Shown here in pieces: positions 6,046-40,973 of a DNA stretch of 64,000 nucleotides. Both the position numbers and the translations under genes were made by a program. The notes beneath the pieces were generated by a model. That model saw nothing but the letters and a program-made list of their open reading frames with translations. It was not told the origin of the DNA and ran no database searches. Position 1 is the first letter of the stretch; every line of letters begins with the position of its first letter. The stretch lies in the NCBI GenBank assembly GCA_000004985.1, contig GG738846.1. One strand, given 5' to 3'. This stretch comes from Naegleria gruberi. Lineage: Eukaryota.

Positions 6046-6124
6046 ATACTTTTTAAAAGTCAACTGCCTTACGTGAAAGTTTATTTTTGACCATTGTTGT
6101 ATTGTAGTTGTTCCCGCCAATGTT

Positions 6125-9100
6125 TTGCACAAAATAAAAAAAATGCTAAACAATGGTATGTTGATTAATGTTTGCCATTGTATTCATGACTTTATAGCCT
6201 GGCAACAGCCGTACGTAAACCTAGTAAAATTATGCTCCGAGAAGGGGAAACAACATTCTTGTGAAGGAGGAGTTACGCAAGAGATGGATCGAGACATCGG
6301 AAGAACAGTATTCAGAATTAAAGGTTCTGTGCCATCAAATAACTATATTTCCTTTCCATCATCTATTCCTAAAAATAAGGGTGATGTGCTTGGTTTAATT
6401 GGTCAATTTTGTTACGTAGAGTTGAGAGCTAATAGGGATGTATTTGTATTTCATGTTGAGATTATGACTAAGGATGAATTAACCTTTAGATTTTCTTTCG
6501 GAAACATTTCCAAACAATTCAAAGTAAGTTATCAAAGAGATCTCTTGTTTTAATTTCAATTAGAAAACTCATAATTCAATTTTCATACCCGTTGATTATC
6601 TGTCCGAGAGTTGGACTGTGCTTGCCATAGATTTTAAAGCTCTTGTTCAGACACACCTAGATAAAGTATTCAAATGTATTAGAGGCATAATTACTTGTTC
6701 AAACCTGTCATTGAAGAATGTATACACAAGTGACAATATCTATTCTACGGACACACTTACTAAAGACATGTTTCTTCCAGTTCCAAAAGGAAGTAGTTGG
6801 ACTGATCTTTATGAATGGCATTGGATTCCATCAGAACCAACAAATATCAAATTAGCATGTATTATTGACCCTCAAACTCTTAAAAAGCCTTCAACTAGTT
6901 TTAATACAAGTAGGACTTCATCAATTGGATCCGCCAACTCTAGACGATCAAAAATTACTGGTGTTTCTAATAAGAGTATGCTGACACCTTCTCCAATTTT
7001 GGATATCAAACGTTTTATTGGATACAATTGTTACTATAATTCCAACTTGTGTTGGACTTTGGATTCAAATTACTGTATTTTCCCAAGTGGCTCATCAATT
7101 ATCAAAATGGAAGTAGCTACAGGTAAGTAATTCTTTGATGGTGATGCTGAAAAATAATAGGAACCCAAACTGCTTTTCAAGGTCATACCCAATCCATCAC
7201 CTCTATTTGTACAGATTACAAATGTAGTATTATAGCAAGTATTCAGAATAATATTCCTCTGATTAGGTTATGGGATATCGAATCTGGGAGATGTTTATCT
7301 GTTTTAAAAGGTCAAGAGACTGAAATTAGTTGTGTTTGCATATCTGATAGTGGGAATGTAATGGTAACAATTGGAAAAGATAAATCTCTAAAGACTCAGT
7401 TTATTATTTGGGATATTTCAAATATTAGAGATTCTGGTGAAGATGTTCCTATTATTTCTAAATATGTATGCGATTATTCAGTTCAAAAGGTCAAATTTGC
7501 TCCCAATGAAGAAACTAAATTTGTTACTTGTGGAATGGAAAATATTAGATTGTGGAGATTGAAAGGTGGAATAGTTAGAGGTTGTTCACTCTCTCTGGAA
7601 AACTATAGTCTAACAAAACAAAACTTTCTTGATATTGCTTTCGAAAAGGCATTTCTTTCTCCTCATGTAAGTATTTCAGGTTGATGAAACTTAAATGTTA
7701 TTCTTAGTTAGGAGACAAAGACCACAGATTCTACTTAGGAACCGAATCAGGTGCTATTTATCAAGTAAATTATAATAAGAGAATAATAGAGTGTGTATTC
7801 CAACTTCATAACAGTGCAATCAATACTCTCTACATTAATGAAGGAATTTGTATTACAGGATCTGCTGATAAGTTTGTTAGAGTTTGGCCCCTAGATTTCT
7901 CTGATTTTTTCATAGAGGCTGAATTGGAAAACTCTGTCACCAGTGTTGTGACATCTAAGGATGGATTCAAAGCTCTTATAGGAGACTCAAATGGATCTAT
8001 TGGAATTTTGGAAATAAGTACTCAGATCTACAGATCAGTACTACGATCTCACACAAAAACTGTTTTGGACGTAGTTAGTGATCCTAGTAGAATGGAGTTT
8101 GCTTCTGTGTCTCTTGATAGAACAATCAGAATTTGGGATCTTACAACTTTAAATCAAAAATATCAATTCGATATTGACGGAGAGAGCCCAATTTGTGTGG
8201 ACTACCACAAGACAGAGTACATGATAGCATGTGGATTCGAGTCTGGTATTGTAAGAATCTTTGAAGTCAACACAACCCAAGTTCTCGAAGAGTACAAGGC
8301 ACACTTGTCTGATGTATTGGCCATAGCATACACATTTGATTCCAAGTGGCTAATCACCTCTTCCAAAGAATCTATTTGTATCTCAGATACCAAACACATG
8401 TACCAACCCGTCAAGGTTATTCCCTACACATGTGAATGCAAAAGGGTGTGTTTATCATTGAGCAGAGATGGAAGATTCTTTGCATTTATTGGACCAAATA
8501 GAAATATTATACATGTGTACAGCTGTAAAGACTTTGAAGAAGTTTATATTTTCGAAACTCCAACCGACTTGTTCGAAGGAATAGTCTTTTCCTCTGATTC
8601 TAAGGAAATAATTGCATCCACTTCAGACAACAAGCTAATGGCCATTTGTTTGGAAAAAGGAGAAATTATTTCAGAAACTGTAAGTAGGTCGATTAGTTTG
8701 AAATTTACATCTTTATCAAAGGAATATTCAAGTAAAAACTATGCTGTAACACTAGACACAAGTCAAAATGGAAAATATTTAGTTACTGGAGGTGACGATA
8801 AATTAATAAGGGTCTGGAACTCGAAAGACTTGGCCAACTTTAGCTGTCAAAAATTTGTTGGTCATTCTGGAGAAATTAAGAAGGTTCTTTTCAGTTCAGA
8901 TTATGGTCATGTCATTAGTTGCGGAGATAATGGTATAATTGTTTGGAACTTCTTAGGAGACAAATCAAGAGATATTAATCTAATGATCGAAACACACTTG
9001 GAAAGAAAGATGATGGAAAAGAAAAAAAAGGAAGATTTTGAAGTTGATGATTTACCAAATAGATATAATGATCTTTTCTCTAAAGCTTTAGAGGAAAAGA

Positions 9101-11289
9101 TGAGACATGATATTGAGACACTTAAAGATGATCCTGCTGTTAAGGAAGATCCAAAAGAGGATCCTAAAACAACCACTTTACCGTCAAATGAACATAATAA
9201 GAATATCATTACACCATTCAGACAATATAAGCTAAATAGACCTATCTCAAGAGTAACTGTGCGCGACAGAAATATGCCCACTGAAAACCCCTGCCTTAAA
9301 TTAGGAAGAATTACTGGATATAATGGAAATGCCAGAGAGAACTTGATTTGGGATGAACCAAACAAACGTTTGATTTACACATCTGGAAATGTTATTATTA
9401 TTGAAGATATCTTGACCAGACACCAACAATATCTTTTCGGTCATGAACATGAAATTAATGCACTAGCAATCCACCCAAACGGAAAAATATTGGCATCGTG
9501 TGGTGGGGTAAAAGGAATTACAATGGATTCACCAATTTTGTTTTGGAGTCTGGAAACAAACTCTGCTTTCAAGAAATTAGATTACCACAGATGGGGTGTT
9601 TTGGCAATGGACTTTTCTTATGACGGAAAGTATTTTGTTAGTGTTGGCGTCAATGAATATGATGAGAAAAACGTACTGGCTGTATGGTCTGTAGAAACTG
9701 GAAAAATGATTGTTAATGCTATGGTTTCAGAGATAATCCATGCTGTAAAATGGTTTCCAACCTCTCCTTCATCAGAGTTTATTACCACAGGCAAAAATTC
9801 CATCATTTTTTGGTATTTGAATCCAGAAGGGCAATTGCTAATGTCTCCAGCTAAGGTTGATGAAACATATGTGATAAGTGGAAATAGAGATGGAGAAACT
9901 ATTACTCACTATTCTTGCATTGGATTTAGTGAAGACTATAGAAGTGCTTGGGTTGGCTCAACACAAGGCTCAATTTATTGTTTTAATATTGAGACAAATG
10001 AACTCGAGTTCAAGTGGGTGGATGCTCACGATTCTGAGGTAGATTATGTTTATTGGAGGAAAAACACTGTTATCACAGCAGGAACAGACTGCCAAATCAA
10101 GAGGTGGAAGGTTAGCAAAAAAGACAAAATCTATACCATGATACTCAGGGAGCAAATGGAAGTTGATACACCAATTACTTCTGCTTATTTTGATAATGAC
10201 AAGTGTAATCAAGGAGTAGTTGGAACGGCATCTGGAACTATTTGGTATATTAATTGGGAGCAGCAACAGTGCATTAGATTGATCAGTTGCCATTCAAATT
10301 TTGTTACAGGAATTGTAAAGGTTAATGACTATCTTACTTCATGCTCTCATGATGGTTCTCTACGTATTTGGTCCAGAGTTGATGAAAATCAAGTAGTATC
10401 CTATAACCAAATTCTTGAACTAAAGAGAGGAGAGACTAATCCCACCCCTGCACTCTGTATGTGTAACAGTACAACTAGTAACCTTGTAGCAGTAGGATTT
10501 TTGGATGGATCGATCTATATTAATTATCTTAATGATCTCGAAAATGTTTTAAAGAACAAGATAAGACCTCATGAAGAAGCAATAACATGTATAGCTCTAA
10601 CACCAAGCAACAGAATCATCACAGGAAGTGCAGGTGGTTTAATTACTATTGTTGATAATTTAGTTAATATTTCAGAAGATACCTCACTGGCACCTACAGA
10701 ATTTTTGGAAAATAGATTTGTATTTATCAAGGAGTTTTTAGGTCACAGATTATGTTCTCTTGATTATGATGCTAAATCAAGACGATTTGTAAATACAACT
10801 GCCACAGGCCTCGTGTCTGTTTGGAATGAGAATGACTTGTCTCAAGTTGCCAAGTTTGCCCCACATATTTATACCAGAAAGGTTGCAGAAAAGGAAAAGT
10901 ATGAAGTGGATATCATTGCCAAATTCTCTCCTTTTGATTCAGATTTATTATTGATTACTGCTCCTTCTAAAGGTACCCCCAAGATTGAGTTTTACAATTA
11001 TAAGAGGGAATATTGTGTTAAAGTTGTCGACTTGAATAGATTTGTCAGTTGTTTTGCTGTGTCTGTAAAACACAAATTAATTGCATTTGGTTCTAGAGAA
11101 AGAATGGTAGCTATAATGGACTATGATAGTGGTGAGTTTGAAGAATATGAAGCTCATGGAGATTGTGTTAAATCTATCATGTTCGATGATACTACCGATC
11201 AAGTCTTATCCTCTGGGTTTTCTGATTTGGTTGTGTGGAAAGTCGGCTCATCAAGACCATCAGGTAAAAATATCAACACAACAAACTAA
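6125..11289 (+). CDS. WDR90: WDR90/POC16 homologue: N-terminal DUF667 (CFAP20-like) domain followed by many WD40 repeats, about 1,680 aa. A centriole/ciliary-base protein.
   Basis: Four exons joined manually: 6125-6523, 6564-7122, 7161-7666 and 7708-11289. Introns are 40, 38 and 41 nt, all GTAAGT..YAG, and phases are consistent. The spliced protein matches WDR90 segment by segment (VFRIKGSVPSNNYISFP, MFLPVPKGSSWTDLY, IRLWRLKGGIVRGCSLSLE..LDIAFEKA, VRVWPLDFSDFFIEAE). The start may be the ATG at 6125 or at 6143. Confidence 0.85.
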
Positions 11290-13033: not shown

Positions 13034-14666
13034 TTATTTTCTCTTCAGATTAAAATAGGAAAAAATTGGGTTACCAAGAACTGGTTCTTTTGGAATGGTA
13101 ACTGTTTGATTTTGAGGTTGATAACCATCCTTTGATACTTGAATAGTAAAGGTTCCAGGAGGTAACAATCTCCAGAAAAATCCATTAGAATTAGAATTAA
13201 TAATCTTTGCATTATTAATTACAGTTACATTAGCTCCAATAACTGCATTTCCAATATCATCTGAAACAATACCAACTGCAGAATACTTCAATTGATCCAT
13301 ATAAGCAATTAGAGCGTCCTTATTTTGATCCCAATATCCATCTAAGTGATCTTCAGGAGCAATATACTCCTCAGTCAACTCTAAAGTAAGTTCATAACAA
13401 TTAGCTCCAAAGTAATTATAATCGGCCATGGAATGTCTGAATAAAATTCGAATTAATCTAAAAATGAAAAAGAAAAGCTTACCTAACAACCCACCATTGG
13501 GCACCATTGGTAATACCTCCTGGGAATCTCTTACTCAAGTGCATAACAGTGTTAGTGTCTGCATAAACTGATGCAACTTGTTTGAAGAAGGTATCATCAG
13601 GTGTGGCAGAATAATTACAATCCTTTGACAAGGCAGTATCGAAAGGATAGTTAGCAACAACTACACCTCCATGTAGATTGGCTGACAAAATAAATGATTC
13701 CTTTGAAATCCAGTTCAAAACTGCAATAGTTTCTGGTTGGAATGGATCATCAGGCTTACCAAAATAAAAGTCTGGGAAGTTTCTATTCAAATCAACACCG
13801 TTTGCATTTCTTCTTTGTTTAAGCTCATAACCATCAGGGTTCATAGATGGCATAATATAAACATCCATATAATCAAGAATGGAAGTTACTCTTACATCAC
13901 CAGCATTATACAAGTTCAAGAGATATTCAATAAAATAGAGAATTACTTCTCTTCCAACAGTTTCGTTACCGTGCATGTTTGCAATATATTTGAACTTTGG
14001 TTTTTCATATCTCAAGTTTGTATTTGGTCTACCAATAACTTTTGTACCAAAAAGTTTCATAACCCATAATTCTCTTTGTTGGACTGATTGACCAACAGAG
14101 AAGAGTACAGATAAATGAGGATTGGCAGCGTTGAGAGCCTTCAATTTAGCTGTCATTTGCACATAGTCATGATTTGAAAGCAAATTCTTTGCTGCTCTTT
14201 TGTCAAGGGAGGATTTTCTTGTTGTGGTATTGAATAATCTTTTAACAATGATTGGAGTCTTGCTCTTACTTTCTGCATTAATTTCATCAATTTGATGTTC
14301 CAATCTGTGTACTTGATTTTCATTCTTCATTTCAACAATGAACATTCTTTCTTTTTGTAATTGTTGAGCGAGAGATGAAAGAAAGTCATTTCCATTCCCA
14401 ATTAACATCTTGTCGAGTGGTTTTCTAATTCTAATAGAGGCCTTATCAAACATTTTTGCGTGTCTTCCTTCAACAAAAACTTTTTCTAATTCTTGTCTAT
14501 TTAATCCCATTACTAGTACAGAAAATTCAGACAACATTCCTGCACTGCTAGTGCCCGTATGTAATGTTATCTTTGTAGAGGATGAGTGAATTAAAATCAT
14601 CACGGTCATCATCATTATTATGCCCTTCATCAGATGCACTGATGAAAATCGTTGTTGTTGTTTCAT
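13034..14666 (-). CDS. Zinc metallocarboxypeptidase of the M14 family (CPD/CPE-like N/E subfamily). It has a signal-peptide-like N-terminus and a C-terminal transthyretin-like beta domain, about 528 aa.
   Basis: Exons 13483-14666 and 13034-13436 are joined by a 46-nt GTAAGC..TTCAG intron. The junction ...GGITNGAQWWVVR|HSMADYNYFGANCYELTLEL matches CPE/CPD. It has the HGNE zinc-binding motif and the NRNFPD motif, and the C-terminus LLPPGTFTIQVSKDGYQP is transthyretin-like. N-terminus: MKGIIMMMTVMILIHSS. Confidence 0.8.
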
Positions 14667-15124
14667 TGGTTCTGTGAAAGAAACGAGAATCTCTCTTTGT
14701 TATCCCGAGTTGTTTATGACGGAGCGGTTTGTTGTTCTTTTTTCTGAGCAATTTGTTTGAAAATTACAATCTAAGCTCTGCTCAGAGCTAGGACTCCACA
14801 ACAATTCGGAAGCAATTACCAAATTATTATTGCTAATGAAATAATTGGAAGCGTGTTTACAAAATTTGGCTCCTTCAGGAGTTAACAACTCCCTTAAAAA
14901 TCTTGAACGTTTGTCTCAGTTAATAAAAGAAACAATAAGTTTCCAATGACATTCAATTTTTAATCTTCGTCTGAAAATTATCAAATCCAATAATTGACCA
15001 ATAGGATACCTACATATTAACCAAACAAGTATTGATATTTTGCTTTTTGTTTGCCTTTAAGTTTTTAACAACAGGTTAAATGAATTATTTATTCTATTTA
15101 AATTTTAAATAATTCTATTTAAAA
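14667..15124. promoter_or_regulatory. 458-bp divergent intergenic region between the carboxypeptidase (-) and SAC3 (+) start codons. It contains short perfect hairpins.
   Basis: Both flanking ATGs point outward. It holds the palindrome AGCTCTG-C-TCAGAGCT at about 14774-14789 and the stem-loop GGAGTT-AACA-ACTCC at about 14878-14892. The small ORFs here (14548-14751, 14700-14888) look spurious. Confidence 0.3.
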
Positions 15125-18100
15125 ATGCCACCAAGAGAAGCAAGAGGAAATTCCAACCCATCATCTGGCTCTTCTCGATACCACAGATCATTTAAGAATA
15201 CATCGGATAATACCGATGAACAACAACATAAACCTTCAAGAGGGAATTATAGAGGGGGATATAGAGGAAACTCTCGTTCAAATTCTTCTTCAAGAACAGA
15301 GGAAACAAATGACACAAACACACAAAAATCGACTTCTCACAGAGGAGGACACAATACACAAAGAGGACCTTACATACCAAGAAATTCAGAGGATTTATCG
15401 GAAGGTTTACCTAAAACAAGAGTTAAGCCATACAAACCTGGTTTTATTAAAAAACAAAAATCCGAAACACTTCCCAATTTTCAAATAGTAGCAAGAAATG
15501 ATGAAGATGAGGAAAGTTCACAAACATCAAATAGGACAAAAAAACAACCATTTAAAAAACCGAATCCAAAAGATTTAGTTTGGGAAAGATCTGCTGAAAG
15601 AGATGATGAGCAGGCTCCAAAACCTCCAAAACAAACTTTTCAAAAACAACCATTTAAAAAACCGAACCCAAAAGATTTGGTTTGGGAAAGGCCTGCTGAA
15701 AGAGATGATGAACAGATTCCAAAACAAAAATTAAAGAAACAACCATTTAAAAAACCGAATCCAAAAGATTTGGTTTGGGAAAGGCCTCCCGAAAAGGATA
15801 ATCAAAGATTTAAAGAAGGAAAAAATCTACATTTACAAATTTTCAAATAGTAGCAAATAATGACGACAAGGACGAGGAGCAAAATACTCAAAAACCACAT
15901 AGAAAGCAACCATTTCAAAAACCAAATCCAAAAGATTTAGTTTGGGAAAGGCCTGCTGAAAGAGATGATGAACAGATTCCAAAACAAACTTTCCAAAAAC
16001 AACCATTTAAAAAACCGAATCCTAAAGATTTGGTTTGGGAAAGACCTGTAGATAAGGATGAGCCAACTCTAACAAATAGAATTGCAAAAAAACAACCATT
16101 TAAAAAACCAAATCCAAAAGATTTAGTTTGGGAAAGGCCTGCTGAGAGAGACGATGAGCAGGCTCCAAAACAAACTTTTCAAAAACAACCATTTAAAAAA
16201 CCGAATCCAAAAGATTTGGTTTGGGAAAGGCCTGCTGAAAGAGATGATGAAGAATCCGAACACTCTCATACACCATCTGGAATTCACAAATATTTAGATG
16301 ATTTATCACATGGCCCAAATATATTTACCCTACCACAAGGATTTTCTGGATTTGGCTCTTACAGAGATTCTAATTTACCAGATAATAATTTATTCGAAAT
16401 TTCTAAACCAAAAATTGTAAATATCAACGAGGATGAAGAGGATAATATAATCAAATCTGACGAGAAAGGGGTATTATTTGAGGATGAAGAACAAGACGAA
16501 GAGTATTATGTAGAAAAAGACCAAACAGACAATGAGCAAGATGAAGAGGATAATCATGACGAGGAAGATCAAGAAGAAGACTATAATAATTTTGTTATTG
16601 AAAGAAAATCTTCCTCATCGTATGATGAAAACGACAGTGAAAGACAAATCCTAACAATTCCCCCTAAAACACATGAAAAGAATGAAAAGGACATTATCTA
16701 CTCGAAACTGAAAACTATGGAATCAAAGACAAAAATTTGGGAAAAAAGCTATCCAATCAAGGCTAACTCAATTATTGGTACATGTCAGGACAAATGCCCA
16801 AAACAAGAGATTACCAACAGAGAAAAGGATAACGATCTCAGTTTATTTGAAAAGACAGGAAAGATCATTATAGACGAGCATGGTATTAAGATGTACAAAG
16901 CAGATCCTAATGCTTGCGTGAAAAAGTATGCCAGATCTGCTGCAGCCGTTCATGCTGATCCTTCACTAATTCGTCCTCCTCTAATACTCAAGAAAACATT
17001 GGAATATTTGACCCATAATATTTTAGAACGTAAAGAAGAGTATCATACTATATATTTTTTTATTAGAGACAGAGCTAGAAGTATTATCCAAGACCTAACA
17101 ATACAAGACATCAGAGATGAACGAAGTGTAGACTTACATGAAATAATTTCAAGGTTTCACATAATGAGTCATCACTTACTAGCAGATGTAGGAGAAGAAT
17201 TATCAGATCCTCATCAAAATCTTGAATTAATGAGCAAATGGCTTAAAAGCTTACAGGAGCTCTATTTTGAATTAAGATCTAATGGAATTGAATGTCCAAA
17301 TGAGTCAGAGTTCACTGCTTACTATATACTTGTAAAGATTACTTCAGATCAAGAAGTTGCCAAGTGTTTGAGAAACCTTCCTTCCAAAGTCAGCAAGTCT
17401 CCAGAGGTATTGTTCGCCCTTAAGGTTTACGGAGCATTTTCTACTAAAAATTATGTACGATATTTTGAATTGGTCAAGCAAGCAAGTTACCTAAGTGCAT
17501 GTCTAATGCACATGTATTTTGCACATATCAGAGAAGAAGCTCTCAGAATTATGAATACAGCATTTAATATTAAGGTCACTGATATTTCCAAGGCTGGTAG
17601 ATATCCAATATCTAAACTCGTAGATATTTTGGCATTTGAAACTAAAGGAGAGTGCACAGATTTTTGCAAAGCCCACGGTATTTATATTGACGGGGATGAT
17701 GTATTATTCAAATACTCCACGTTCGTAACACCTGACAAGAAAATCAAATCAAAGAGGTCATTGAGGTTGATTGAATCAAAGGTTGCTGGCATTAGATACT
17801 CTGATCTTGTAAATTTAAATTTTCGGATAGCTCCAGAACCTTCCAAAACACCGCCGAAAGAATTAGAAACTAAAATCAATGAGTCACCTCAGAAAATCGA
17901 GATAATCAATCCACCAACTCAAGTGCAAATAGTTCCTCCAGCTTCCCAACCAAAACCACCAACACCTGCTCTTATTCAGAGTGCTATTCCAAAGGAAGTA
18001 ATAAGAGAACCTGAAACAAAAATACCATTGGTAACTCAGCAACCACCATCTAGGTATGATGTTCCACATGTCAATCCACCCTCCACTTTTGTTCCACCCA

Positions 18101-20181
18101 AACCAACTACACAAGAAAATAGACCAATCTTTCCTCCAATTGTTTTTAGTCCTTCCCAGATGCCACCTTTTAACATAATCAAGTCACCAAATCCTCCAAT
18201 TCCACCTACTCTAATTCAACCACAACCACCTGTAGCTTTTAAAACTCAATCACATAGAAACGAAATTTCTATTGATCCCTTGATTCCTCAAATCCCAGTC
18301 TCCCCAATTAAACCCCTAGGTCCGACTGAGGAGGAAACCAAAAAAGAACTGAAAAGCAAATATTTTTCATTATTGAAGAAATATGCAGAAAGGAAAAAGA
18401 GAATTCGTGCAAGTAGGAAACAACACATCAGCAATGCAATGGACTTTGTACTCCAAGAAAATATTATGTCAGATGATTATGAAGAAGATCAATCAATGTG
18501 CAAATATTACAAACACATATTCAAGAAGAGATATCTCAGCCAATTATACCAACCTCTTGACTTGGCTTCTCTTATCTTTAATTCACCTGTTACTGACAAG
18601 ATTGATACATTTTTCAGCTTTTTTTGGAAACTAATGATAGTACCAGGAACAAACAGCACTCATCTTAATGAATGGATTGCGGCAAAATTTTCTCGCCCAA
18701 ATAGTGATGACTATTTGTGTAATTTTATAGTAAACGGTAAGGACGTGGATTCCCTACCAAGACCCAAGAAAAACACAGAACTACATATTTGTGCACGAAC
18801 CCCCAAAGACTCAAGGTCATGGAGAGGTACTTCCTCAATAATTTTCATATTGGATAATCCCAACAATACCGATTTACAGACATATTTCTCACTAGAAAAA
18901 AAGAGGTTACACCAACATTTTTCAAATTTAGGCTTATTTAATGATACTCATATCCCTATTCTAATTCTCTTTGATAAGAGCTGGTTTCACAATAGCAGTG
19001 AAAATATGCTAAAGGAGCATTTCCTTCACATTATCTATGAAGATTTTAAATGCTTTTCAAATGTGGAATATGTAGGCATTAATTTTACTCACCTACTAAA
19101 CTTTCCCTCATCAGAAGAAATTGCTATTTTAAATCAAGTTTTAGAAAATTACACCTTGTGGCTTGCAAATAACTCCTCCGATCCACCTCTTCTCCACACA
19201 TATTCTATTAGAGATTTGATAGAAGAAACAACTTTTTCACACATTCGAAAATTGTTGATCGATATTGATCCAAATGCTAGAAATGGTATAACTGTTAAGG
19301 ATTTGATACTTGTATACAATGATGTGTGTGAATCGCTATCCCATCAGACTATTTCAGAGACTGAAAGAATGAGAAAACTAAATTGGCCAGCTCCAGAGTT
19401 TGAAAAGTATTGCGATTGGAACACAGATGAAAATGCAATACTTCAAAAAGAGCTTTTAGGTCAATTATCATTACCAACCATTGATCTAACTCTCTACAAC
19501 TCTAAACATATTGTTGACAATTTGTATAGCTCATGTAAGCAGTATGTGACAACCCTGTATACAAAACGTAAGATTTATCATCCAGCCATTTCCAGTCAAT
19601 CCATCAAGCAGTTGGTTAAGGAACTTGTTAACGGTGGTGGATATGCTGCTAGTATCAAAATCTTTGAAATGTTCATTGAGATACATTTAACCTTGCTCTT
19701 TGATAAGGATCCACTTTATAGTTTTGTTTTCACCACAGCAGAATTCAAAAGTATTGCCAATTCAGTTTTGGAGAGGCTCAGATATAGCTCAAACCCATTC
19801 ATCGAATCGTCATTAAGGGCTTCGTATGGGTTAAAAATGTCTCTCAATTCAGACAAGACTAATTTTGAGACTTTTAGAAATCTTAAACGTATTATCAAAG
19901 AATCCACTCAAGAAAAAAACCAAGATTGTAAGAAGAGAAAACTTGTTACCTATATTGATATTAATCAATGTATAGGGATGCACACCCAATTATCAAACAA
20001 AATTAGTGAGCAAAGAAGTCTATTTTCTCATCTCGAATCAGCCCCATCCGATCTTAGTTACCACTCTATTGTAGATACAGATATGAGTGACACAGTATCC
20101 ACCAGTGACAGTTGTCAGTCCTGCATTGATTCCCTCAAATTACTACAAGAAAAACTTGAAATGTATAGAAAGGGTATTTAA
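15125..20181 (+). CDS. SAC3: SAC3/GANP-domain protein (TREX-2 / nuclear mRNA export scaffold). The N-terminal region is built from tandem ~31-aa repeats, and the gene model has a frame break near 15845.
   Basis: ORF 16030-20181 (its frame is open from about 15822) contains the SAC3/GANP homology region (CPKQEITNREKDNDLSLFEK..MYKADPNACVKKYARSAA..IRPPLILKKTLEYL..YFFIRDRARSIIQDLTIQ). ORF 15125-15850 (ATG at 15125) carries the same QPFKKPNPKDLVWERPAERDDEQ repeats in a frame shifted by +1. No GT..AG pair reconciles the two frames, so this is either an indel or an assembly error inside the repeats. Confidence 0.65.
15541..16260 (+). repeat. In-frame coding tandem repeat array. About 7 copies of an ~93-nt unit (periods 86-168 nt) encode QPFKKPNPKDLVWERPAERDDEQ(A/I)PKQTFQK.
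   Basis: Near-identical DNA copies of caaccatttaaaaaaccgaatccaaaagatttRgtttgggaaagg start at about 15547, 15651, 15737, 15905, 15998, 16093 and 16186. Confidence 0.8.
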
Positions 20182-23735: not shown

Positions 23736-26700
23736 ATGTCTTCTATTGATGTTGTGGGATGTCAACTTGGAGTAGTTACCAATACTCTTATCCGTATTGC
23801 AATATTTCCCATCGGTAAAATTAATGCCTCAACATTTAAAAAGTTTGTATCAATGATACAAGCTTGTGATTCAAAGCCGATCAAAAGTTTGACCAGATTC
23901 AGAGATGATAATTTAAAAAGTCCTTTTCAAAAGCAGGATTGGTCTCGATCTGTTTTAAAATTTCAATTTGTTGACGAAACAAGTATTAATACAGGATATT
24001 CGGATTTCCATCAATATAGAAACGTTCACGGAGTGATTGGTATTATGAGTTGCTTGAGTGAGGAATCTGTTGCTAGTGGATTTACAAAATACAAAAAGCA
24101 AAAATTACAACTATACGGAAAGAATATTGTGGGAAGATGCTTTGCAGTAGAGCAAGATCCTGAAACAATGGCTCCTGAGGATGAAGAATTGGTGGTAATT
24201 CCTAATCAAGATGAAAATCATGTTGGATGTCATATTGATTATTTATTTTCTGATTTGGCAAGACAAATACTGATCAGATTTGAAAAAATTGTTTCAAATC
24301 CTTCTGCCTATTTCAATGAATTATCAAATACGTATTTAATGACCTCTCCATCTGGTCTTTTCCCAACAAGTAATAATAGTAGTAATAATACCAAAAAGCC
24401 AGCAACCCCAGCCAAAACAAAAGTTGATACACAAACCATTCCCACTTCACAATCGTCAACCAATCTTTCCCTTGGAGATGAGAAAAATTTACAAAACATG
24501 AAATTATTTGCAGATTCCTCTCTTTTAATTTGCGATTATGAGGATGCCATGACTACCTATCAAGAAATTAGTAACATTTGTAAGATGCAATTGAACAATA
24601 CTACAAGTGCAGCTATCAACTACCCTTTATATCAGGCTGGTGCAGCCGAAGGTATGGCTTCCATCATTTTTGTAAAGTCAAGACTTGCACAAAAGTCTGA
24701 GGTTGATAGCTCCATAGTTCAACAAATCTATGATTTGATTCAAGAATCTATTCAATTTTATGAAAAATCTAAAAAGAAAGATCTTTTAGTGGAAACCTAC
24801 ATTAAAATGGCTGTATTCATCTCAGGGTATTGCGAAAAAAAGAAGAGAAAGGAAGCACTAGACTGTCTAACAAAGGCTGTTCAATCTGCTGATTCTTTAA
24901 CAACTCAAGAGAAGGTATGTTTAAATTTTTAGAATCCAATAATTCATATTAATGAAATAATAACAGATTGTTGTTTCTGGGTTTGCAGCCAAAATTTGCA
25001 AGCAAATGAAATGTAAAAGAAAGTTTGGATTTTTCTTGAGACAAGTAGCAGTTCTTCATCATGAATTGTGCAACCAAGGTGTTTCAATTAGATTGGGATC
25101 CCAATTTATGGATGCTTATAACATTCCAATTGAGCTAACATCACGTACAGGTTAGTATTACAATATTCCAATTAATTGTGCTATATTGTACTTTGTTATT
25201 GTCTTTATTAATATAGAATGGAAAACAAAAAAGAATTTTTCACTCAAAGGATGGCATTTTATTCAAATGGATGTTATCAAAAGCATGATTGATTTTGCAC
25301 AATCAATGAGTCCAGCTGATTATTGCACAGAAATTCAATTTAGATTTTATCTCTTATCAGAGTATGGACAAATTATGTCTAAAACAACTCAAGAGGAACA
25401 TTTGAAGCGTATATTATCTGTTTCTCACCAAATACCTAAAGGCATAAATATTCTGTTAAAGCCTCTTCCAATCATCAAAATGGTTGCTCCTCAAAAATTA
25501 CCTTCACACTTGGAACCAAAGTCACTGGAAATCAAAGATAACAGACCTCAATTGTTTATTTATTCTCCATTTGACAAGAAGGATGAAAGATTGGTAACTT
25601 TAAATTGGGCAAAAAATGAAACTGCACAAACACTAGTTGAATTTTACAATCCATACAAGATTGATTTACGCTTAAAGAATGTATCGGTAAAGTACAAACC
25701 TGAGATTTCTCCAATTAATGAAAGTGGAGAACCTATTTGTGACGTATTTGTTCACTCAGCTGTGGTTGCGAGTGGGCAATCTCAAAAGGTTTTTGTAGCA
25801 ACTAAACCTAGAGCAGTTGGAAGTATTATTCTTGATTCAATTGGAATAGAATTTGAAGAAGGTAGATTTAAATCACCAGTCTATCTTCCAATAACAACCC
25901 AACACCTCGTAAATGAAAAAAAAGAAAGGAGAGACTATGATATCACCGTTGTAGAGACTGTTCCACTTCTTAATGTAACTCTTTCAACACCTCAACTATC
26001 TCTTGTTGATGGAGAAACAACTACACTCTTTGCAAAGCTTCATAACACTGGTAATTGTGAGATTACCTTCCTTGAAATTACATTTAACAATCAAACAGCA
26101 AACACTGTTTCAATTAAGGACGAAATTATCAAAAAGTATCTTCCGCTTGTTCCAGATGCTGATGTTGTAACAATTCCAATTGAAGTAGTTGGAGTATGGA
26201 AAGGATCAAGTGATCTAGGTATTATTAATATTCATATCAAATATGGTATTGAAAAACAAGATCCTAATGAAAAATCTTATTATAGAGAGATGGACCTTTC
26301 CATTAAAACAACAGTAATGAGGGCTGTTGCTGTTGAAGATTGTATAACAGTTAACGAATCATTCAATAAGAAGATTGTGGCTAAAATTCACAACTATTCC
26401 AATTCTTCCTTTATGTTATTGTCTAGCCTCTCCCAACATTTAAAGGATGAGCAATTTGATACAGGAATACCTTTTGGTGCTCAGTCTACCAAAATGATTC
26501 TTGTTGATCCTTCCATTCTTCATGATATCAATTTTGAAGATTTGAATATTCCATACACATCAGATATCAATAGATATAAGGGAACAATAGCAAATGCAAT
26601 GAGATGGAAATCTGTAAGTAATTATTCTAATATATCATAATAGTTAATCATTCATAGTATGTCAACACGATTGGTATTGTTGGTTGTAAGAAAGAGAGTG

Positions 26701-27206
26701 AAGAAGTAAAACAAAATAGCCAATCAAAAGAAAGAGTACATTCCAGAAAACAAACCATCATTTCTGCACCTCCCATTATGAATGAATTCTTGAATATTAA
26801 ACAAGAAATGATTGCCAATGTAAATAATCAAATTATAGGCCACAAAGAACTGGCTATTCAACAAGTTCCTGTACAATTAGGCATTAGCGAACAAGTAGAG
26901 TTCACAATTAATGTAACACTTAGCTCAGTTAATAATCAACAAATTTTAAATAAGATTGCAAGTTTAATTTTAAGAGTTTATCAAGATGGAGAAAATGGTA
27001 CAAGAATACCTGCAACAAACCGACAATTTTGTTATTCTGGTAGATTGAATACTTGTTTGGAATTGACGTCATCGAGTCCTTCCCAAATAACTCTAAAACT
27101 TTTCTTTTTAGAAAAGGGGACATTTAAATTATCAGTTCTTTGTAATGATGAACAAACTCAAGATATGCTTACCTCTCCAATAGAGGCAGTTCTTGTAATT
27201 AAATAA
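23736..27206 (+). CDS. TRAPPC9: TRAPP II-specific subunit TRAPPC9/Trs120 homologue, about 1,100 aa, four exons.
   Basis: Exons 23736-24914, 24967-25150, 25217-26613 and 26658-27206 are joined by introns of 52, 66 and 44 nt (GTATGT/GTTAGT/GTAAGT..AG). Phases are consistent and total length is divisible by 3. The N-terminus (RNVHGVIGIMSC, NYPLYQAGAAEGMASI) and internal blocks (KRKFGFFLRQVAVLHHEL, PQLFIYSP, IDLRLKNV) parallel TRAPPC9. Confidence 0.75.
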
Positions 27207-27295
27207 ATTGTGGAGTATTGAATTATTATTTAACTCGATAGATAATATCACCCAACCGTATTGTATTTAATTGCTTGGTTACCACTTCAAAAAAA

Positions 27296-27865
27296 ATGAG
27301 TTCAAATCAACCTGTTGACGAAAGAAGAGAAAAGATTAAATCCCTCATCAGAACTGTTCCAGACTACCCTCAAAAGGGTATCATGTTCAGAGATATCAGT
27401 ACATTGTTGGCTGACTCTGAAGGATTGGCTCTTGTTGCTGATTTATTTTATGAACAATACAAGGATAAAAAGATTGATGCCGTTATCGGTATTGAAGCCA
27501 GAGGTTTCATTTTAGGATCCTTGTTGGCCTATAAAATTGGAGCTGGTTTTGTTATGATTAGAAAGGAAGGAAAGATGCCAGTCGGTTCTGGTGTTACAGT
27601 ACTGAAGGAATCATATCAAATGGAATATAGAAGTGCTACCACTATTGAAATGCACTCCGATTCTCTCAAAGCAGGACAACGTGTTGTTATTATTGATGAC
27701 TTGTTGGCAACTGGTGGTACTTTGTTGGCTAGTATTAAACTTGTTGAAAGACTTGGAGCCGAAGTTGTTGAATTGGCTTGTATTGTTGAATTGCCAGCTC
27801 TTGGTGGTAGATCCAAACTCGCTGCTTATCCACTCTATCATATGGTTGAATTTGAAGGAGATTAA
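27296..27865 (+). CDS. APRT: Adenine phosphoribosyltransferase, 189 aa.
   Basis: The ORF track starts at a TTG at 27275. The first ATG at 27296 gives MSSNQPVDERREKIKSLIRTVPDYPQKGIMFRDIS..VVIIDDLLATGGTL, with the PRPP-binding motif and overall APRT colinearity. Confidence 0.9.
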   Translation: MSSNQPVDERREKIKSLIRTVPDYPQKGIMFRDISTLLADSEGLALVADLFYEQYKDKKIDAVIGIEARGFILGSLLAYKIGAGFVMIRKEGKMPVGSGVTVLKESYQMEYRSATTIEMHSDSLKAGQRVVIIDDLLATGGTLLASIKLVERLGAEVVELACIVELPALGGRSKLAAYPLYHMVEFEGD

Positions 27866-27957
27866 ATGCTTGTATTATTAATAATTGCAATTAAATAATT
27901 TTCAAATCTATCCAACAAAAAGGAGTGAAAAATCTAACATCTAATTACTTTAAAAAA

Positions 27958-30571
27958 ATGGAAGATTCACTCCAAACCAATGAGTCCCCAAGTTCCGTCA
28001 CTGCAAAACAAAGGAACATTCCATTGATCATTCCAAAAGGTTTAAATGTTGATGACAAAACTCTCTTTCGTAAGAAGAGTGTTACTTTTAATTCACCGTC
28101 ATCAACAGGGCAATCATCTCCTCCTCCTTCAATAGTAATTACAAAAACAACAACTGATAACAGTGTACCAGTGATAGATATTCAAGAGGAAGAGCCAACA
28201 AGTAAATATTATCAGATGGAGGAAGATGAAACTCCTAGAAGCATTTTGACTTCATCGGAAATCAAATCAAGAAGAAACAGTATCAAGTCATCCCGTAGAA
28301 AGTCAATAAAACAACAACCACCCAAACTTAAGCACGCAATGATGACATGGTTCAGAACCCAAAAAGAATCATTGAAACAAAAAGCAAAATCTGCCACTCC
28401 AGAAGCAATGTTAACAACAGGTCCTATTGTTAAATTGTTTAAATATGGAAAGTAAGTTCTCATTTGTAATAATATTTGTTTAATATTAAATGATTATATC
28501 TTGATCAATACTAGAATTCCATGGAAGTTACTCATACAGTGTCTTCTTTTAATTTTAATAACTACTAAGGTTGTTTTATTATCAGAAAAAAGAAATAACT
28601 ATTTCATTAATAATGACATTACCTTTGCAACATCCTTTTTGAAGGATGGATTTGAGAATTATGAGGCAAATGTTGATGGCTTTTTTAGTAGCTACTTTTA
28701 TTCTACTGATGATGTAATTGCAGATATCAGCAATACTGTTTCTTCTGTAAGTATTCATAAATTATAAGATGACAATCAATACTATTCATAATGTAGTATT
28801 ATTTATTTCCTAGAAAGAATGTTGATGTTTGGGTATTTCCAAGAGACCTTTCAAGAGGAGATCTTATCAGTCCTGTTGAGGCAAAGCTCTCCCTCTTTAC
28901 GGAAAGCCCAAGGGACTTTATTTTAAATGGTTCTGATACGACGTTTAGTCGTGAACCTCTAATAGAGGGTATGTAAAAAAATTCCCATTTCAACTAACGT
29001 GAGAAGAATCTGATTTATTGACTCTTGATAAGCCTTTAGGATCAGTATTGGAAGGGTATTTTGCTAATAATTCAAGATCATTATTTGATAGACTTGACAA
29101 ACTTACTCTAAAATTTAGTATTATTGGTTTGGATAGAAGTAATTATGTTGTGAATGGGTTTGCAGAATGTGTATTTTGGACTATTACCAAGACATACAGA
29201 AACAATGAAGGTGGTAAACTTACTTCTTTTATTCTAAGAGATTATGACATTTGCAATAGAACAGACAGAAAAGCAGTCATGGAATTTTACAAACCATCCA
29301 TATGGGTTTCCTTAGTAATATCTTTTGCAAGTGCTCTTGCTCTTGCTCTAGACGTTAAGTCTGTGATTTTTAGACTCAGAATGTTCAAAAAGATAAGAGA
29401 TCTTGAAACACTAAAGCATGTTGGTCAGGTGTAAGTTTTTAAAAACAAATTTTATATACTATTTGATAATAGTATACCAATCAACTCTGATGACAATTTT
29501 ATCAAGCAAAAAATCAAGAGAATCATTTATCATAGATATAAGAATATTTGCTTAGCCGATTTACCTGGTGTTCTATCGTACTGGTTCATTTTCTCCTTTT
29601 CACAACACATGACAAACATGTTCTCATTCATTTTTGAATTGCTTACTCCAGGTAATATACAAATTAATAGCTTTTTCATTGGTATGAGTTGTATGCTTAC
29701 ATATTCAAGTACTATGAGATTTTTCCAATTTCACAATGAATTTTACATGTTCAGTAAAGCATTTGAGAGAGGTTTACCCCAAGTGATTAGATTTATTATT
29801 ACAACATTACCTCTATATATTGGATTTGGTGTTTTGGGAACCGTGATGGTATGTATTCTTAATTTCATAAGTTTATTAATTCATCTCTAGTTTGGTGAAT
29901 ATTCTAGATATTTCTTAGATTTGAATGAATCACTGGTAACTCTATTTTCCCTAATTTTCCAAGACAACATGCACGATACTTTTGACAGTGTTTTTGGTAA
30001 CAAGACATTTACGGCATACTTTTCCAGACTTTACATTTATGTTTATACAGCTATTTTTATTTGTGTAATAGCCAACGTTTTTACCAGTATCATGGAAGAT
30101 GCCTTCTTCTCGTTGAAAGAAAATCAAGAAAATCTTAATAATCAGGTTCAAGAGGAAGAAAAGAAAAATACCACCACTTCCACTTCAGTTCCTAACAATA
30201 ATGAGGATGATAGCGATTACGATACAGAATCTAATGTGTCCGTTATGGATGTATCTCTAGCAGACATAACTGATGAAGAAGAAATTTATTGGAATCAAGC
30301 TATTGAAAGAGAGCAAAAGAAGGAAAATAATCTCGTTGAAACAAAGAACAAATACTTCCCAAATGAACCAAAAAGTTTGAGTTATATTCTAGACGAGGAA
30401 AGTATTGAGGATAACATTGATCGTATTCTTTTTATTGTAAAGGAAGCTTGTAATGGTAAGGTACTAACGGAAGAACAACAATCTCTGTTGGAAGAAATTG
30501 AAAGAAATGCCCAATCTGTCTATTCAAATAGAACATTTGTAGAACTTGATGAAGTTAATAAAGAAGAATAA
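27958..30571 (+). CDS. TRPML (mucolipin)-type cation channel, about 776 aa, six exons, with an acidic C-terminal tail.
   Basis: Exons are approximately 27958-28451, 28515-28746, 28818-28968, 29034-29430, 29473-29848 and 29891-30571. Introns are 63, 71, 65, 42 and 42 nt, and total CDS length is divisible by 3. The spliced protein matches mucolipin (TM1 IPWKLLIQCLLLILITTKVV; TM3/4 SFFIGMSCMLTYSSTMRFFQF; pore region FGEYSRYFLDLNESLVTLFSLIFQDNMHDTF; TM6 YIYVYTAIFICVIANVFTSIMEDAF). The exon 2/3 junction is the least certain. Confidence 0.8.
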
Positions 30572-30601
30572 GGAAAAGAATAAAAAATTACACAATTAAA
30601 A

Positions 30602-33390
30602 ATGAAGCAACTTGTTAAATGTAGGAAGCCGTTCTTTTCCTACCCTAACAAACACAATATCAAAGCAGCAACTCTTCAGCCATCCTGTAGAGTATTCGGA
30701 AGGAGAACAAAAACAATTAACATAATAGATAATCTCCCTTCTGAAAAAAATAAATGGATAAATACTAGACATTTACTTGTAAAGGACCATCTCATCGGAA
30801 AACCAACTCTACTGATCAATATTAATTATTTCCCCTCTGTATTGAATTATTTGATGAGTTTGGAGTAAGTGGACTTTGAAATTCGAATTCTAATACTGGA
30901 TAGTTTTACATTGGAAAACAGAGCAAATATTATTGGATTTGGAGGCGATTTGCAGAGTATTGATACTCTTCGTGATTATGTTCTCTACCACGAATTTCCA
31001 TACCCTGTATTCAAGACAGATTCTTGTGATTTCATACTGCAATTATTAGACCAAGAGGGAAATTTATTCTCAACATATTACGATGAAATGGAAATATTTG
31101 AGAGGCTGGTTAGAGGTAATTATTGAAATGAATTTAAATTATTAATATGATTAATAGATACTGATGATATTATTGAGAAGTCAATTCACATTCAGATGAA
31201 GGAGTTTGAATGGCAGAGATTGGACAAACCAATTGAACGGTTACTTCAACCTCAAACTCTCTTTCAGTATCCAACTTTTTTGGAGAAAGCAGACAAACAT
31301 TTATTTATTTCGGATACGTTTCATAATAGAATAGTAAAGATGAAACCTGATGGACATGTGGAATATGTTGTAAGTTAAAAAATTCCATTTATTTACAATT
31401 TAAAACAGTTTGGTGATGGCTTTGCTGGACTTAAGGATGGAATATTTTCTGATTGTAAATTTTATAGACCTCAAGGTCTATTTCATGACATTCAACAAAA
31501 TCAAATAATTGTGGCTGATACTAATAATAATACAATTAGAAGAATCAATCTCAATGAAAATTTTGTTTCAACCCTTATTCAAAACAACTTGGGACAAGGT
31601 ACTGATTTGGAAAGTTATCTTCTTAGAGATGACACTACACGAATTATGCTCACAGAAGAATATATTGAAAAACAATTTATTTTCGAAAGAGAAAAAGAAT
31701 GGTTAAAGAATACTCCTAAACCACTAACTGTTGATTTTACTGCATGCTCCAAAGCCATAAGCAAACCTGTAGACCTTTTTATCAATTATGATGAAAATTG
31801 CTTATATGTTGCAGAAACGGGATATAGACATATATGGAAAATAAGGTTGGAAAATGGACTTGTTGAGGATGTATTACCAATAATGATACACAAATATTTG
31901 AGAAATGATTTCAGCAAATACATCTCTCAGGTATTTCCCTCACTAGAACTTAACAGTAGAGCTAACCAATCTCGGAAGAATTTATTTGCGGAATTTAGCT
32001 TTTTAAAGCATAGATCTTCAATTCAACAAAACAAAACCCCCTCCTTCCATTATATCATTGAGAGCCCAACCGCTCTTTATCGACCACATTCAGATAATGA
32101 ATACAAATTCAGACAAATTAAGGTGACACCCTCTTCAACTCTCACATCCACAACAATCGGTAATGATGGTATAATAGAATCTGTAGCTTGTAAAACTATT
32201 TTTACTTCTACAGGAATTGGATTCAAAAATGGTTCAATCGTCGGAAAAGAAAAACCAGAGTTTAATCACCCTATTTCAATCGTAAAGATTGAAAATGATC
32301 TGTTCATTTCTGATTCTTGTAAGTAAATTGTTAAAGTATGAATATATTTTAACTCTATACAGTCAACCATGGAATGAGGAAATTAAGTACGATTAGTGGA
32401 CAAGTTGAAACTGTACAACCAAGCAATCTAAGGGAGTTTGGTGTAGTAGCATCTGAAAACCATCCAAACATACTTGAAGATGGAAATTTAGATGAAAATA
32501 ATAGATGTGGAAGGTTAATTAGAGCTGAAAAGATGAACTTTGTGAGTGGTAGCTGTCTTATCAAACTTTGCTTGAAAGCACCTAAAAATTTCAAATTTAT
32601 TGAAAAAATCTCATCCCAAAACATAGACATCAAGTTTAAAAATAATGGTAGTTTTACAAGTCAACACACCGCATATGTTCACAATAGGGAATTATTTAAT
32701 CCTGAATCGTTCTCTATTTCTGATGATTCTGATTGGAAAAGTATAAAGAGAAAAAACAGAGGGTATAACTCTCTGCCAGAATTAGTAGAAGCCTCTAAAG
32801 ATGATGAAATGCTACTTAATATTCCATTCGAATTAGCAGAGAAAGTCTCTAAGAATGAAAATTTAGAACTGGACATTACATTTACAACATTTATTGGAAG
32901 CTCTCTTGCAAGTTCAATTCATACAAAACCTTTTACACTTCAAGAAGATCTAAACACTGTCTCATATATTCCATTTAATTTACAAACATGTAAATTGGAT
33001 CAGTTACTTAATTTTAGAGAAATTCCAGAATTGGAAGTATCTGATAGAAAAGAAATAAGACACAAAGTATCACAACTTTTAGAATGGGACCTACAAGAAA
33101 GTATCACACCTCCTTTCTTGAGAGAGAATGTTTTAGCAAATATACACAATATACCTGAAAATGAAGAAATGAGGCACGAGGTAATAGAATGCAATGACTC
33201 TTCACAAGTTTTTATTGATTGTGTAACTTTAAGAATTCCAATCCAACTTGTTGAAGATTCAAAAATGTCTACAGAAAAGAAGCGCAAACTTTTGGTTCAC
33301 ACTTTAACTATTCCTGTTTCTCCTTCCCCTCCTCTATTTAAGCAAAACCATCACAAGCATCAATATGTAGCTACAACAAGTAATATTTAA
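30602..33390 (+). CDS. NHLRC2: NHL-repeat protein NHLRC2-like: thioredoxin-like N-domain, 6-bladed NHL beta-propeller and a C-terminal domain. About 868 aa, five exons.
   Basis: Exons 30602-30864, 30922-31115, 31158-31369, 31409-32318 and 32363-33390 are joined by introns of 57, 42, 39 and 44 nt, with consistent phases. The match to NHLRC2 is strong (KPDGHVEYVFGDGFAGLKDGIFSDCKFYRPQGLFHDIQQNQIIVADTNNNTIRRINLNENFVST; LFISDSFNHGMRKLSTISGQVETV). The Trx-like CxxC motif is replaced (NYFPSV). Confidence 0.75.
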
Positions 33391-40300: not shown

Positions 40301-40973
40301 ACTAACATCAATAGCCAAATACAAGATTGATAAAAATCCGCATCAGGTATACCGATGCCTATTCGAAATATCAGAAATAGCTAGACTAAAGCCCTCCACA
40401 GATAATGTTTGGCAGATATCATTTGCAAAATTATTATTTTATTTATTTGATCTCTTTTTTGATGATGATGAAATTATAAGGGAAAAGGCCTTATTGAGTG
40501 TTGCCTCTCTATTGAGATATCAAATTGAACATTGTATCAAGTTTACAGACATTACTTTTAGAAAGATTATGGAAAAACTAAACGATAATGTTCCAGCTGT
40601 GCAAAGAACTGCAGAGAGAGTGGCTGAACAATTTGTTGAATCTATTGAGCCAATCAAAACTTTGGAACTTTTAAAACCACAAATTATTAATAATAGCGAA
40701 AAAGAGCAAATCTTACTTGGAGGCTTACGTCTTCTCACCAAACTAATCAAACTGATAAGTCCAGATATTCTTTTAGGTCATGTTCCAAGCATTTTACCTG
40801 GAGTTTATGAAGCTTTTAAACACAGCAATGTAGATGTACGGAAATCCGTTGTCTATTTAATGGTAGATTTACATTTCTCTCTTGGAGAGTTGTTTGAGCC
40901 ATATCTGAAGAGGTTATCTATTGAACAGCAAAAACTTATTCAAATTTACATAAAAAAGAACGAAGTGAGATAG
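37393..40973 (+). CDS. CLASP: CLASP (CLIP-associating protein; TOG-domain microtubule plus-end regulator), about 1,148 aa, four exons.
   Basis: Exons 37393-37432, 37468-37553, 37598-40086 and 40142-40973 are joined by introns of 35, 44 and 55 nt, with consistent phases and total length divisible by 3. Spliced N-terminus: MDITPIIEQIQTK|AMYYRNKKDPTERIQGLTHLTNSMLDIAL|DDISSVMNAIRPTL... TOG2 (REGFIHKSWRVREGVCLSFVQIL..LLDDSTPSVRDSAILGICEIYRFVGADL) and the C-terminal CLIP-binding TOG (VVYLMVDLHFSLGELFEPYLKRLSIEQQKLIQIYIKK) both match CLASP closely. Confidence 0.85.

Follow-up and report, generated by a model that had tools for sequence, protein, structure and literature searches.

The frame break in the Sac3/GANP gene of Naegleria gruberi: most probably an artefact of sequencing or annotation, or a trivial mutation

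On contig GG738846.1 of the Naegleria gruberi assembly (GenBank GCA_000004985.1), the gene for a SAC3/GANP domain protein, here called Sac3, is found as two open reading frames (ORFs) that lie one nucleotide out of register, with copies of one and the same tandem repeat in each. Should one read this locus as one gene or as two, and what has happened to the frame in between? We examined it within a window of 64,000 nt of the contig, to which all coordinates refer. The frame break most probably goes back to an error of sequencing or annotation, or to a trivial mutation, and not to new biology: one gene, one missing base, and one spurious annotated intron amount to an ordinary mechanism, and the class of artefact is already documented. 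That the missing base is a consensus error of the draft assembly, in a gene that would be a single frame with a spurious intron, we put at a probability of roughly one half.

In sequence, the downstream ORF matches the "SAC/GANP domain-containing protein" of N. gruberi strain NEG-M with 100% identity, and the gene itself is already annotated publicly (XP_002682760.1, EFC50016.1, UniProt D2UZY9; 1652 aa). The family profile PF03399 matches with 306.9 bits against a cut-off of 27, over profile positions 2-287 of 289. Apart from this entry, the proteins closest to that of the downstream ORF are members of the SAC3/GANP family from N. lovaniensis and fungi, first among them N. lovaniensis Sac3 with 36% identity, and a Pfam search of the upstream ORF (ORF1) gave no domain match. 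The parts of the locus that matter for the frame are as follows, with the source of each in brackets.

15125-15850, + strand: ORF1, 241 aa, comprising a low-complexity N-terminus, leader copy L1, and repeat units 1-3 (ORF list, sequence)
15440-15544, + strand: leader copy L1, 35 codons, GFIKKQKSETLPNFQIVARNDEDEESSQTSNRTKK (L1/L2 comparison)
15545-15646, + strand: repeat unit 1, 102 nt (Tandem Repeats Finder, motif scan)
15647-15739, + strand: repeat unit 2, 93 nt (motif scan)
15740-15805, + strand: repeat unit 3, conserved core QPFKKPNPKDLVWERPPEKDNQ, in the ORF1 frame (motif scan, alignment)
15806-15906, + strand: leader copy L2, 101 nt, or 102 nt (34 codons) with one base restored (L1/L2 comparison)
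15812-15825, + strand: interval of L2 that is 1 nt short and includes the A6 run 15820-15825 (L1/L2 anchor alignment)
15848-15850, + strand: TAG stop of ORF1, which follows nine out-of-frame codons at its 3' end (sequence)
15814-20181, + strand: downstream open frame, 1455 codons to the stop, first in-frame ATG at 16717 (ORF list)
15907-16278, + strand: repeat units 4-7, 93 nt each, in the -1 frame (motif scan, alignment)
About 16795-17688, + strand: SAC3/GANP domain, PF03399 (Pfam, E = 1.9e-91)

Tandem Repeats Finder and a motif scan find seven units of about 93 nt, each encoding QPFKKPNPKDLVWERP, upstream of the SAC3/GANP domain; the Tandem Repeats Finder scores (284 and 473) place the array far beyond chance. 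The sequence-only reading of this DNA had described about seven such units ahead of the domain, carried by two ORFs offset by one frame, and this description is borne out. The units start at 15545, 15647, 15740, 15907, 16000, 16093, and 16186, and their alignment contains 15 invariant protein columns, QPF.KPNPKDLVWER...D. The 93-nt period holds exactly before and after the break, with a spacing from unit 3 to unit 4 of 167 nt (2 mod 3), which places units 1-3 in the ORF1 frame and units 4-7 in the -1 frame, 1 nt behind. Unit 1 owes its length of 102 nt to a 9-nt in-frame tandem duplication (CTCCAAAAC twice, 15615-15632), which makes PKPPKQ where the other form is PKQ; this duplication shows that slippage-type indels arise in the array and persist if they are in frame.

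The array is laid out as a leader (L1) with three units followed by a second leader (L2) with four, and the comparison of the two leaders locates the break. L1 consists of the 105 nt directly before unit 1, begins GFIKKQKSETLPNFQIVARNDEDEE, and contains NFQIVARNDEDEE. Its paralogue L2, which lies between units 3 and 4 and is only about 60-70% identical to L1, contains NFQIVANNDDKDEE; its opening codons (RFKEG) belong to the ORF1 frame, after which the -1 frame takes over with KKSTFTNFQIVANNDDKDEEQNTQKPHRK, so that the junction falls between RFKEG and KKSTFTNFQIVANNDDKDEE. At their 5' ends, before 15812, the leaders are offset by 366 nt (122 codons, in frame), and from NFQIVA onward, after 15838, by 362 nt. 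The first of these offsets indicates that the block of leader and units was duplicated in frame. Upstream of NFQIVA, L2 is thus a net 4 nt shorter than L1, that is, one codon plus one base, in agreement with the 4-nt difference in a longer duplicated segment that had been noticed from the letters of the DNA.

Where, then, is the odd base missing? The stretch between the anchors TTT and TC[TC] measures 15 nt in L1 and 14 in L2, and judging from this alignment the A6 run 15820-15825 is the most likely site, with A7 to be expected. A single base inserted anywhere in 15811-15849 gives an uninterrupted ORF of 1685 aa. The downstream frame opens at 15814, after a TAA at 15811-15813. The coding paralogy between L1 and L2 follows the ORF1 frame to about 15811 and the -1 frame from about 15820; because the shortest reference intron of the window (see below) is 38 nt, no intron fits between these points. 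An alternative genetic code of the ciliate or Euplotes type and tandem +1 shifts at AAA-TAG or AAA-TAA were also considered and both rejected, since the organism is Naegleria, since standard-code ORFs fill the window (long, densely packed, at 33% G+C), and since the L1/L2 paralogy puts the frame change upstream of 15838.

The public gene model joins the two frames in another way. Mapped onto the DNA, XP_002682760.1 has exons 15125-15772 and 15871-20181, and its sole intron runs from GT to AG (GTTTGGGAAAGG...GACGACAAG).

15773-15870, + strand: "intron" of the public model, GTTTGG...ACAAG, 98 nt, a length of the form 3n+2 (98 = 3x32+2) (protein-to-DNA mapping)

To judge this segment, one needs to know what the introns of the region look like. 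Our reference set consists of 18 introns inferred from the window alone, at points where long open frames on one strand abut; such frames are bridged by very short introns that start with GTAAGT, GTATGT, or GTAAGC. The 18 are 38-64 nt long, with donors of 7.7-11.6 bits, acceptors of 2.8-7.8 bits, a purine content of 0.35-0.61, and an AT content of 0.62-0.88, and six of them have a length divisible by 3 nt. A scan of tight junctions free of any donor filter returns the same donor motif, and GTAAGT makes up only 0.47% of the GT-hexamers in the window. Three of the 18 were validated through the continuity of Pfam domains: with 13482-13437 spliced out, a Peptidase_M14 match covers profile positions 1-285 of 286 where it had covered 1-238 (205.8 against 175.8 bits), and in a WDR90/POC16-like gene the CFA20 and EML-propeller domains are continuous across their intron junctions.

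Could the annotated intron be real, with the 1652-aa protein as the true product? It has been adopted in the public gene model, it has GT..AG ends, its 3n+2 length restores the frame without a stop codon, and its AT content of 0.68 lies within the reference range. Its donor, GTTTGGGA, does not form an extended 5' splice site: its score of -4.8 bits corresponds to the 49th percentile among GTs drawn at random from exon sequence. The acceptor scores 0.5. Its 98 nt exceed the longest reference intron by 34 nt, and its purine content of 0.64 is above that of every reference intron and like that of the flanking exons. Every one of the seven units has the donor context GATTTG/GTTTGGGAAAG, which under the public model would be spliced in just one and translated through in the six others. 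The segment has coding rather than non-coding content: it holds the invariant VWERP core of unit 3, which splicing would delete, and the NFQIVA segment that is paralogous to translated L1, and at every point one of the two frames is open, a single frame sufficing for the whole segment if 1 nt is added. Given its random-like splice sites, excess length, exon-like purine content, repeated donor context, and the loss of the VWERP core, 15773-15870 is almost certainly not a real intron but a frame-compensating patch of the annotation, and we regard the 1652-aa product as improbable.

No other intron takes its place. The sequence-only reading had held that no GT..AG pair can reconcile the frames; arithmetically this is incorrect, since 223 GT/GC..AG pairs do so (the public model uses one of them, 15773..15870), yet the claim holds in spirit, as none of the pairs resembles a genuine intron. 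All 223 were scored. The best total was 5.1 bits, the 15 best pairs had donors of 0.0 or less and lengths of 134-632 nt, and all were rejected. GTAAG and GTATG donors are found nowhere in 15000-16619, and neither are U12-type or ATATCC donors.

Both sides of the break bear the marks of translation. Differences between units are clearly concentrated at synonymous sites on either side, with a ratio of nonsynonymous to synonymous differences (pN/pS) of 0.18 when units 1-3 are compared with one another, 0.17 for units 4-7, and 0.18 for comparisons across the break; in the two wrong reading frames, this DNA yields 1.79 and 0.99. These low values argue that the units on either side evolved as translated sequence. 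Two further features bear on the question of whether the downstream ORF could serve as a gene of its own.

16339-16362, + strand: GFSGFGSY motif, the sole FG-type element (read from the protein sequences and the DNA)
14667-15124, no strand assigned: non-coding spacer from the ATG of an M14 carboxypeptidase gene (14666, minus strand) to the Sac3 ATG at 15125 (ORF list, sequence, Pfam on the neighbour)

The first in-frame ATG of the downstream ORF, 16717, lies 870 nt 3' of the ORF1 stop and beyond both units 4-7 and GFSGFGSY, a motif that N. lovaniensis Sac3 also has, as LPAGFSGFGSY. A start at this ATG would leave the four units, with their pN/pS of 0.17, and the motif untranslated, which makes a functional split gene unlikely; moreover, a second promoter has nowhere to fit, as ORF1 and the downstream ORF overlap. 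To judge from the layout of the ORFs, the spacer 14667-15124 is the one plausible place for the promoter of Sac3. The locus thus appears to have been a single reading frame throughout its evolution up to the very recent past, or to be one still. The M14 gene is divergent from Sac3, with the 458-nt spacer between them.

Taken together, these observations point to a single gene, the N. gruberi Sac3/GANP orthologue, whose disordered N-terminal region carries a lineage-specific array made by an in-frame segmental duplication of 366 nt. In the sequence as given, L2 lacks one base within 15812-15825, most likely from the A run, which reads A6 for A7, and the most probable cause would be its loss in the draft Sanger consensus. 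The gene caller would then have compensated with the spurious 98-nt (3n+2) intron and so produced the 1652-aa public model, with a true product of about 1685 aa reading VWERPPEKDNQRFKEGKKSTFTNFQIVANNDDKDEE. There is a precedent for each of these steps in Entamoeba histolytica, where single bases missing from the consensus of a Sanger assembly produced coding frameshifts that were compensated by predicted introns of 3n+2 length (Roy & Penny 2007, Nucleic Acids Res 35:4737; PMC1950532). Checked against the reads, 81% of the gaps there proved to be bases that the assembly lacked, and in about 80% of cases the correction extended the ORF through the "intron" (PMC1950532). The Sac3 segment has the same signature, a 3n+2 length and an ORF that continues after one inserted base, and both cases come from an AT-rich protist with an intron-poor genome and a draft Sanger assembly; in E. 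histolytica, however, the missing bases were verified against individual reads, whereas the N. gruberi case is known from the consensus sequence alone. The precedent favours a consensus error in Sac3. The layout of the locus, the place of the 1-nt deficit, the unfitness of 15773-15870 as an intron, and the constraint on either side of the break are shown by the sequence; from them and the precedent we infer that the missing base is an assembly error rather than a real allele.

Several points weigh against this reading. The missing base is deduced from internal paralogy and was not observed in reads or transcripts, and, for a homopolymer error in Sanger data, A6 is a short run. The pN/pS values come from a 22-codon core in seven units that are non-independent and possibly gene-converted. 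The reference introns come from the window only and were chosen partly by their donor motif, although the filter-free junction scan and domain continuity nonetheless support the set. An alignment of the ORF1 leader with the N-terminus of N. lovaniensis Sac3 was collinear but not significant (E = 0.63), and it was not used.

The same anatomy would result if the 1-nt deletion were real in NEG-M DNA, through replication slippage in the A run, either as a heterozygous null allele picked by a collapsed consensus or as a recent loss of function in a long-cultured clonal strain; the product would then be a 241-aa repeat-only peptide, with little or no Sac3. We hold this to be possible but rather unlikely. 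Other slippage-type events in the array (the 9-nt duplication in unit 1 and the 3-nt loss beside the break) speak for it, and since both sides are under coding constraint, a real break would have to be recent. On general grounds one would not expect a homozygous null, as Sac3 is normally a single-copy core subunit of the mRNA-export complex TREX-2. One paper describes Naegleria as for the most part diploid and heterozygous and reports heterozygosity in N. gruberi (PMC9928731), which would accommodate a null allele; against a real deletion stands the high documented rate of missing-base assembly errors with the same 3n+2 signature (PMC1950532). The look-ups and scans made gave no second copy with which to compare the site: exact-product look-ups with the public model and with ORF1 returned no record of independent copies, the sequence cluster of the public Sac3 protein has a single member, and in a metagenome scan the repeat motif gave 78 pattern matches, none of them confirmed by tblastn, while an exact 25-nt tag beside the break gave 0 matches. 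The sequence-only reading had offered two other explanations, a collapsed or chimerically mis-assembled array and a functional split gene with a downstream start for the SAC3 product, and as a pair we find them very improbable. Tandem, near-identical 93-nt units are indeed difficult to assemble, and the scaffold does have an N gap elsewhere. The periodicity is nevertheless intact on both sides, the defect is of a single base, and it falls in the diverged L2 leader, outside repeat-identical sequence; a simpler kind of error, the loss of one base in or beside the A6 run, is a well-supported possibility. The gap itself, the sole one in the window (59860-61936, 2077 N), had been taken as a hint of mis-assembly but lies 44 kb away and is uninformative here. 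As for the split gene, an in-frame ATG does stand upstream of the SAC3 domain, at 16717, but the untranslated units, the conserved motif, and the overlap of the ORFs described above count against it.

Programmed recoding would be the most novel of the explanations, and we consider it extremely unlikely. It would take the form of a -1 ribosomal shift on A_AAA_AAU (15820-15826) or of one A added by the polymerase at G2A6, so that a truly frameshifted gene would yield full-length Sac3 alongside a short ORF1 product. Canonical -1 frameshift sites and the transcriptional slippage at G1-2A6-7 runs, as in potyvirus P3N-PIPO, offer points of likeness: an X_XXY_YYZ heptamer is in the correct register (GGA AAA AAU, 15818-15826), the downstream frame resumes at UCU 15826, the run is G2A6, and the shift is exactly -1, which equals one added A. 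The 0-frame stop lies 24 nt downstream, and there is coding constraint on both sides of the break. Unlike canonical -1 sites, however, the Naegleria site has no downstream stimulatory structure in folds that did not model pseudoknots explicitly. The 104 nt downstream fold with a minimum free energy of -4.6 kcal/mol (z = +0.11), and 96 of 200 shuffled sequences are no less stable; a 201-nt stretch shows no excess stability (z = -0.22); and a search of Rfam found no element beyond a sub-threshold miRNA match (23.5 bits, where the gathering score is 59). The heptamer is common by chance, with X_XXY_YYZ occurring in frame 80 times in 12,487 codons of the window (17 of the 80 are A_AAA_AAH), and any deletion from A7 to A6 creates this one automatically. 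The known G1-2A6-7 slippage systems use viral polymerases, unlike this Naegleria gene, and A6 is below the run lengths known to give efficient slippage by cellular polymerases. Conservation is uninformative here, as the repeat array is absent from N. lovaniensis, the one close relative that was found. We saw no positive evidence for recoding. If recoding were nevertheless true, it would set a regulated ratio of the 241-aa repeat-only peptide to the full-length TREX-2 scaffold in a heterolobosean, and a real break bypassed in this way would be a rare cellular example.

The practical consequence is one of curation. XP_002682760.1 (D2UZY9) probably lacks 33 residues, with 1652 aa against about 1685 expected: the product of the restored frame would span the "intron" as FKEGKKSTFTNFQIVANNDDK, while the junction in the public model reads PNPKDLDEEQNTQK. 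We recommend that the single intron of XP_002682760.1 be treated as a frameshift patch. A simple screen of the N. gruberi annotation could reveal similar patches by looking for introns of 3n+2 length that have no GTAAGT-type donor, exceed about 65 nt, and let the ORF read through with one added base.

What the repeat does is a separate question. A profile of the seven units, run against 1.84 billion representative proteins, returned Sac3 itself (E = 1e-105, seven stretches) and no other Sac3/GANP, which bears out the earlier remark that the motif is not a recognised one in this family. The only other match was a marginal one to a 153-aa protein with GTLVTERPAEKD three times (E = 5.4e-4), which we judged to be chance or compositional. 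N. lovaniensis Sac3 is without the motif, and the restriction of the repeat to the N. gruberi protein argues for a lineage-specific expansion. The protein resembles yeast Sac3 and human GANP (MCM3AP), scaffolds of TREX-2, in its SAC3_GANP domain, its long low-complexity N-terminal region, its long C-terminal extension, and one GFSGFG element N-terminal to the domain. It differs from any Sac3/GANP, including that of N. lovaniensis, in its seven 31-aa QPFKKPNPKDLVWERP units, and it does not have the multiple FG elements of the N-terminal regions of yeast Sac3 and human GANP, since the units are without FG and GFSGFG occurs once. In yeast Sac3 and human GANP, the N-terminal region contacts the export receptor or the nuclear pore. 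As judged from its sequence, the repeat lies in a disordered region N-terminal to the SAC3 domain and is under purifying selection, and by analogy the units probably act as multivalent short linear motifs. This orphan array, with seven copies of the tryptophan-centred PNPKDLVWERP in a TREX-2 scaffold, could be a lineage-specific multivalent docking site. Elsewhere in Sac3, an acidic Asp/Glu-rich tract (16430-16600) lies between the repeats and the SAC3 domain, and a long Pro-rich tract of PPxxQP-like sequence (17830-18300) lies 3' of the domain; N. lovaniensis Sac3 has both tracts at equivalent positions.

Several neighbouring genes in the window were noted along with their introns. The divergent neighbour of Sac3, on the minus strand at 13034-14666, encodes an M14 carboxypeptidase of the D-like type with a C-terminal CarboxypepD_reg domain, and its 46-nt intron (13482-13437, GTAAGC...TTCAG) is the one whose splicing yields the full-length Peptidase_M14 match. 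On the plus strand at 6077-11289 lies the large WDR90/POC16-like gene, with CFA20 and several WD40 beta-propellers and three GTAAGT introns of 38-41 nt (6524-6563, 7123-7160, and 7667-7707); it is of the basal-body/flagellar type, which is consistent with the amoeba-to-flagellate biology of Naegleria. A series of 38-63-nt introns starting with GTAAGT or, for some candidates, GTAATT marks the ORF junctions of 26600-32400 on the plus strand (26614-26657, 27195-27241, 28452-28514, 29431-29472, 30865-30903, 31116-31157, 31370-31408, and 32319-32362). The stretch 25156-27865, which overlaps this region, may be one gene or two, with an APRT-like phosphoribosyltransferase whose own initial Met lies near 27290. 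The ORFs that run across the scaffold gap (59265-62078 on the plus strand and 59728-62154 on the minus strand) are artefacts of N read as open frame. A gene for a CLASP/TOG-domain microtubule regulator occupies 37616-40973 on the plus strand and has one 55-nt GTAAGT intron, at 40087-40141.

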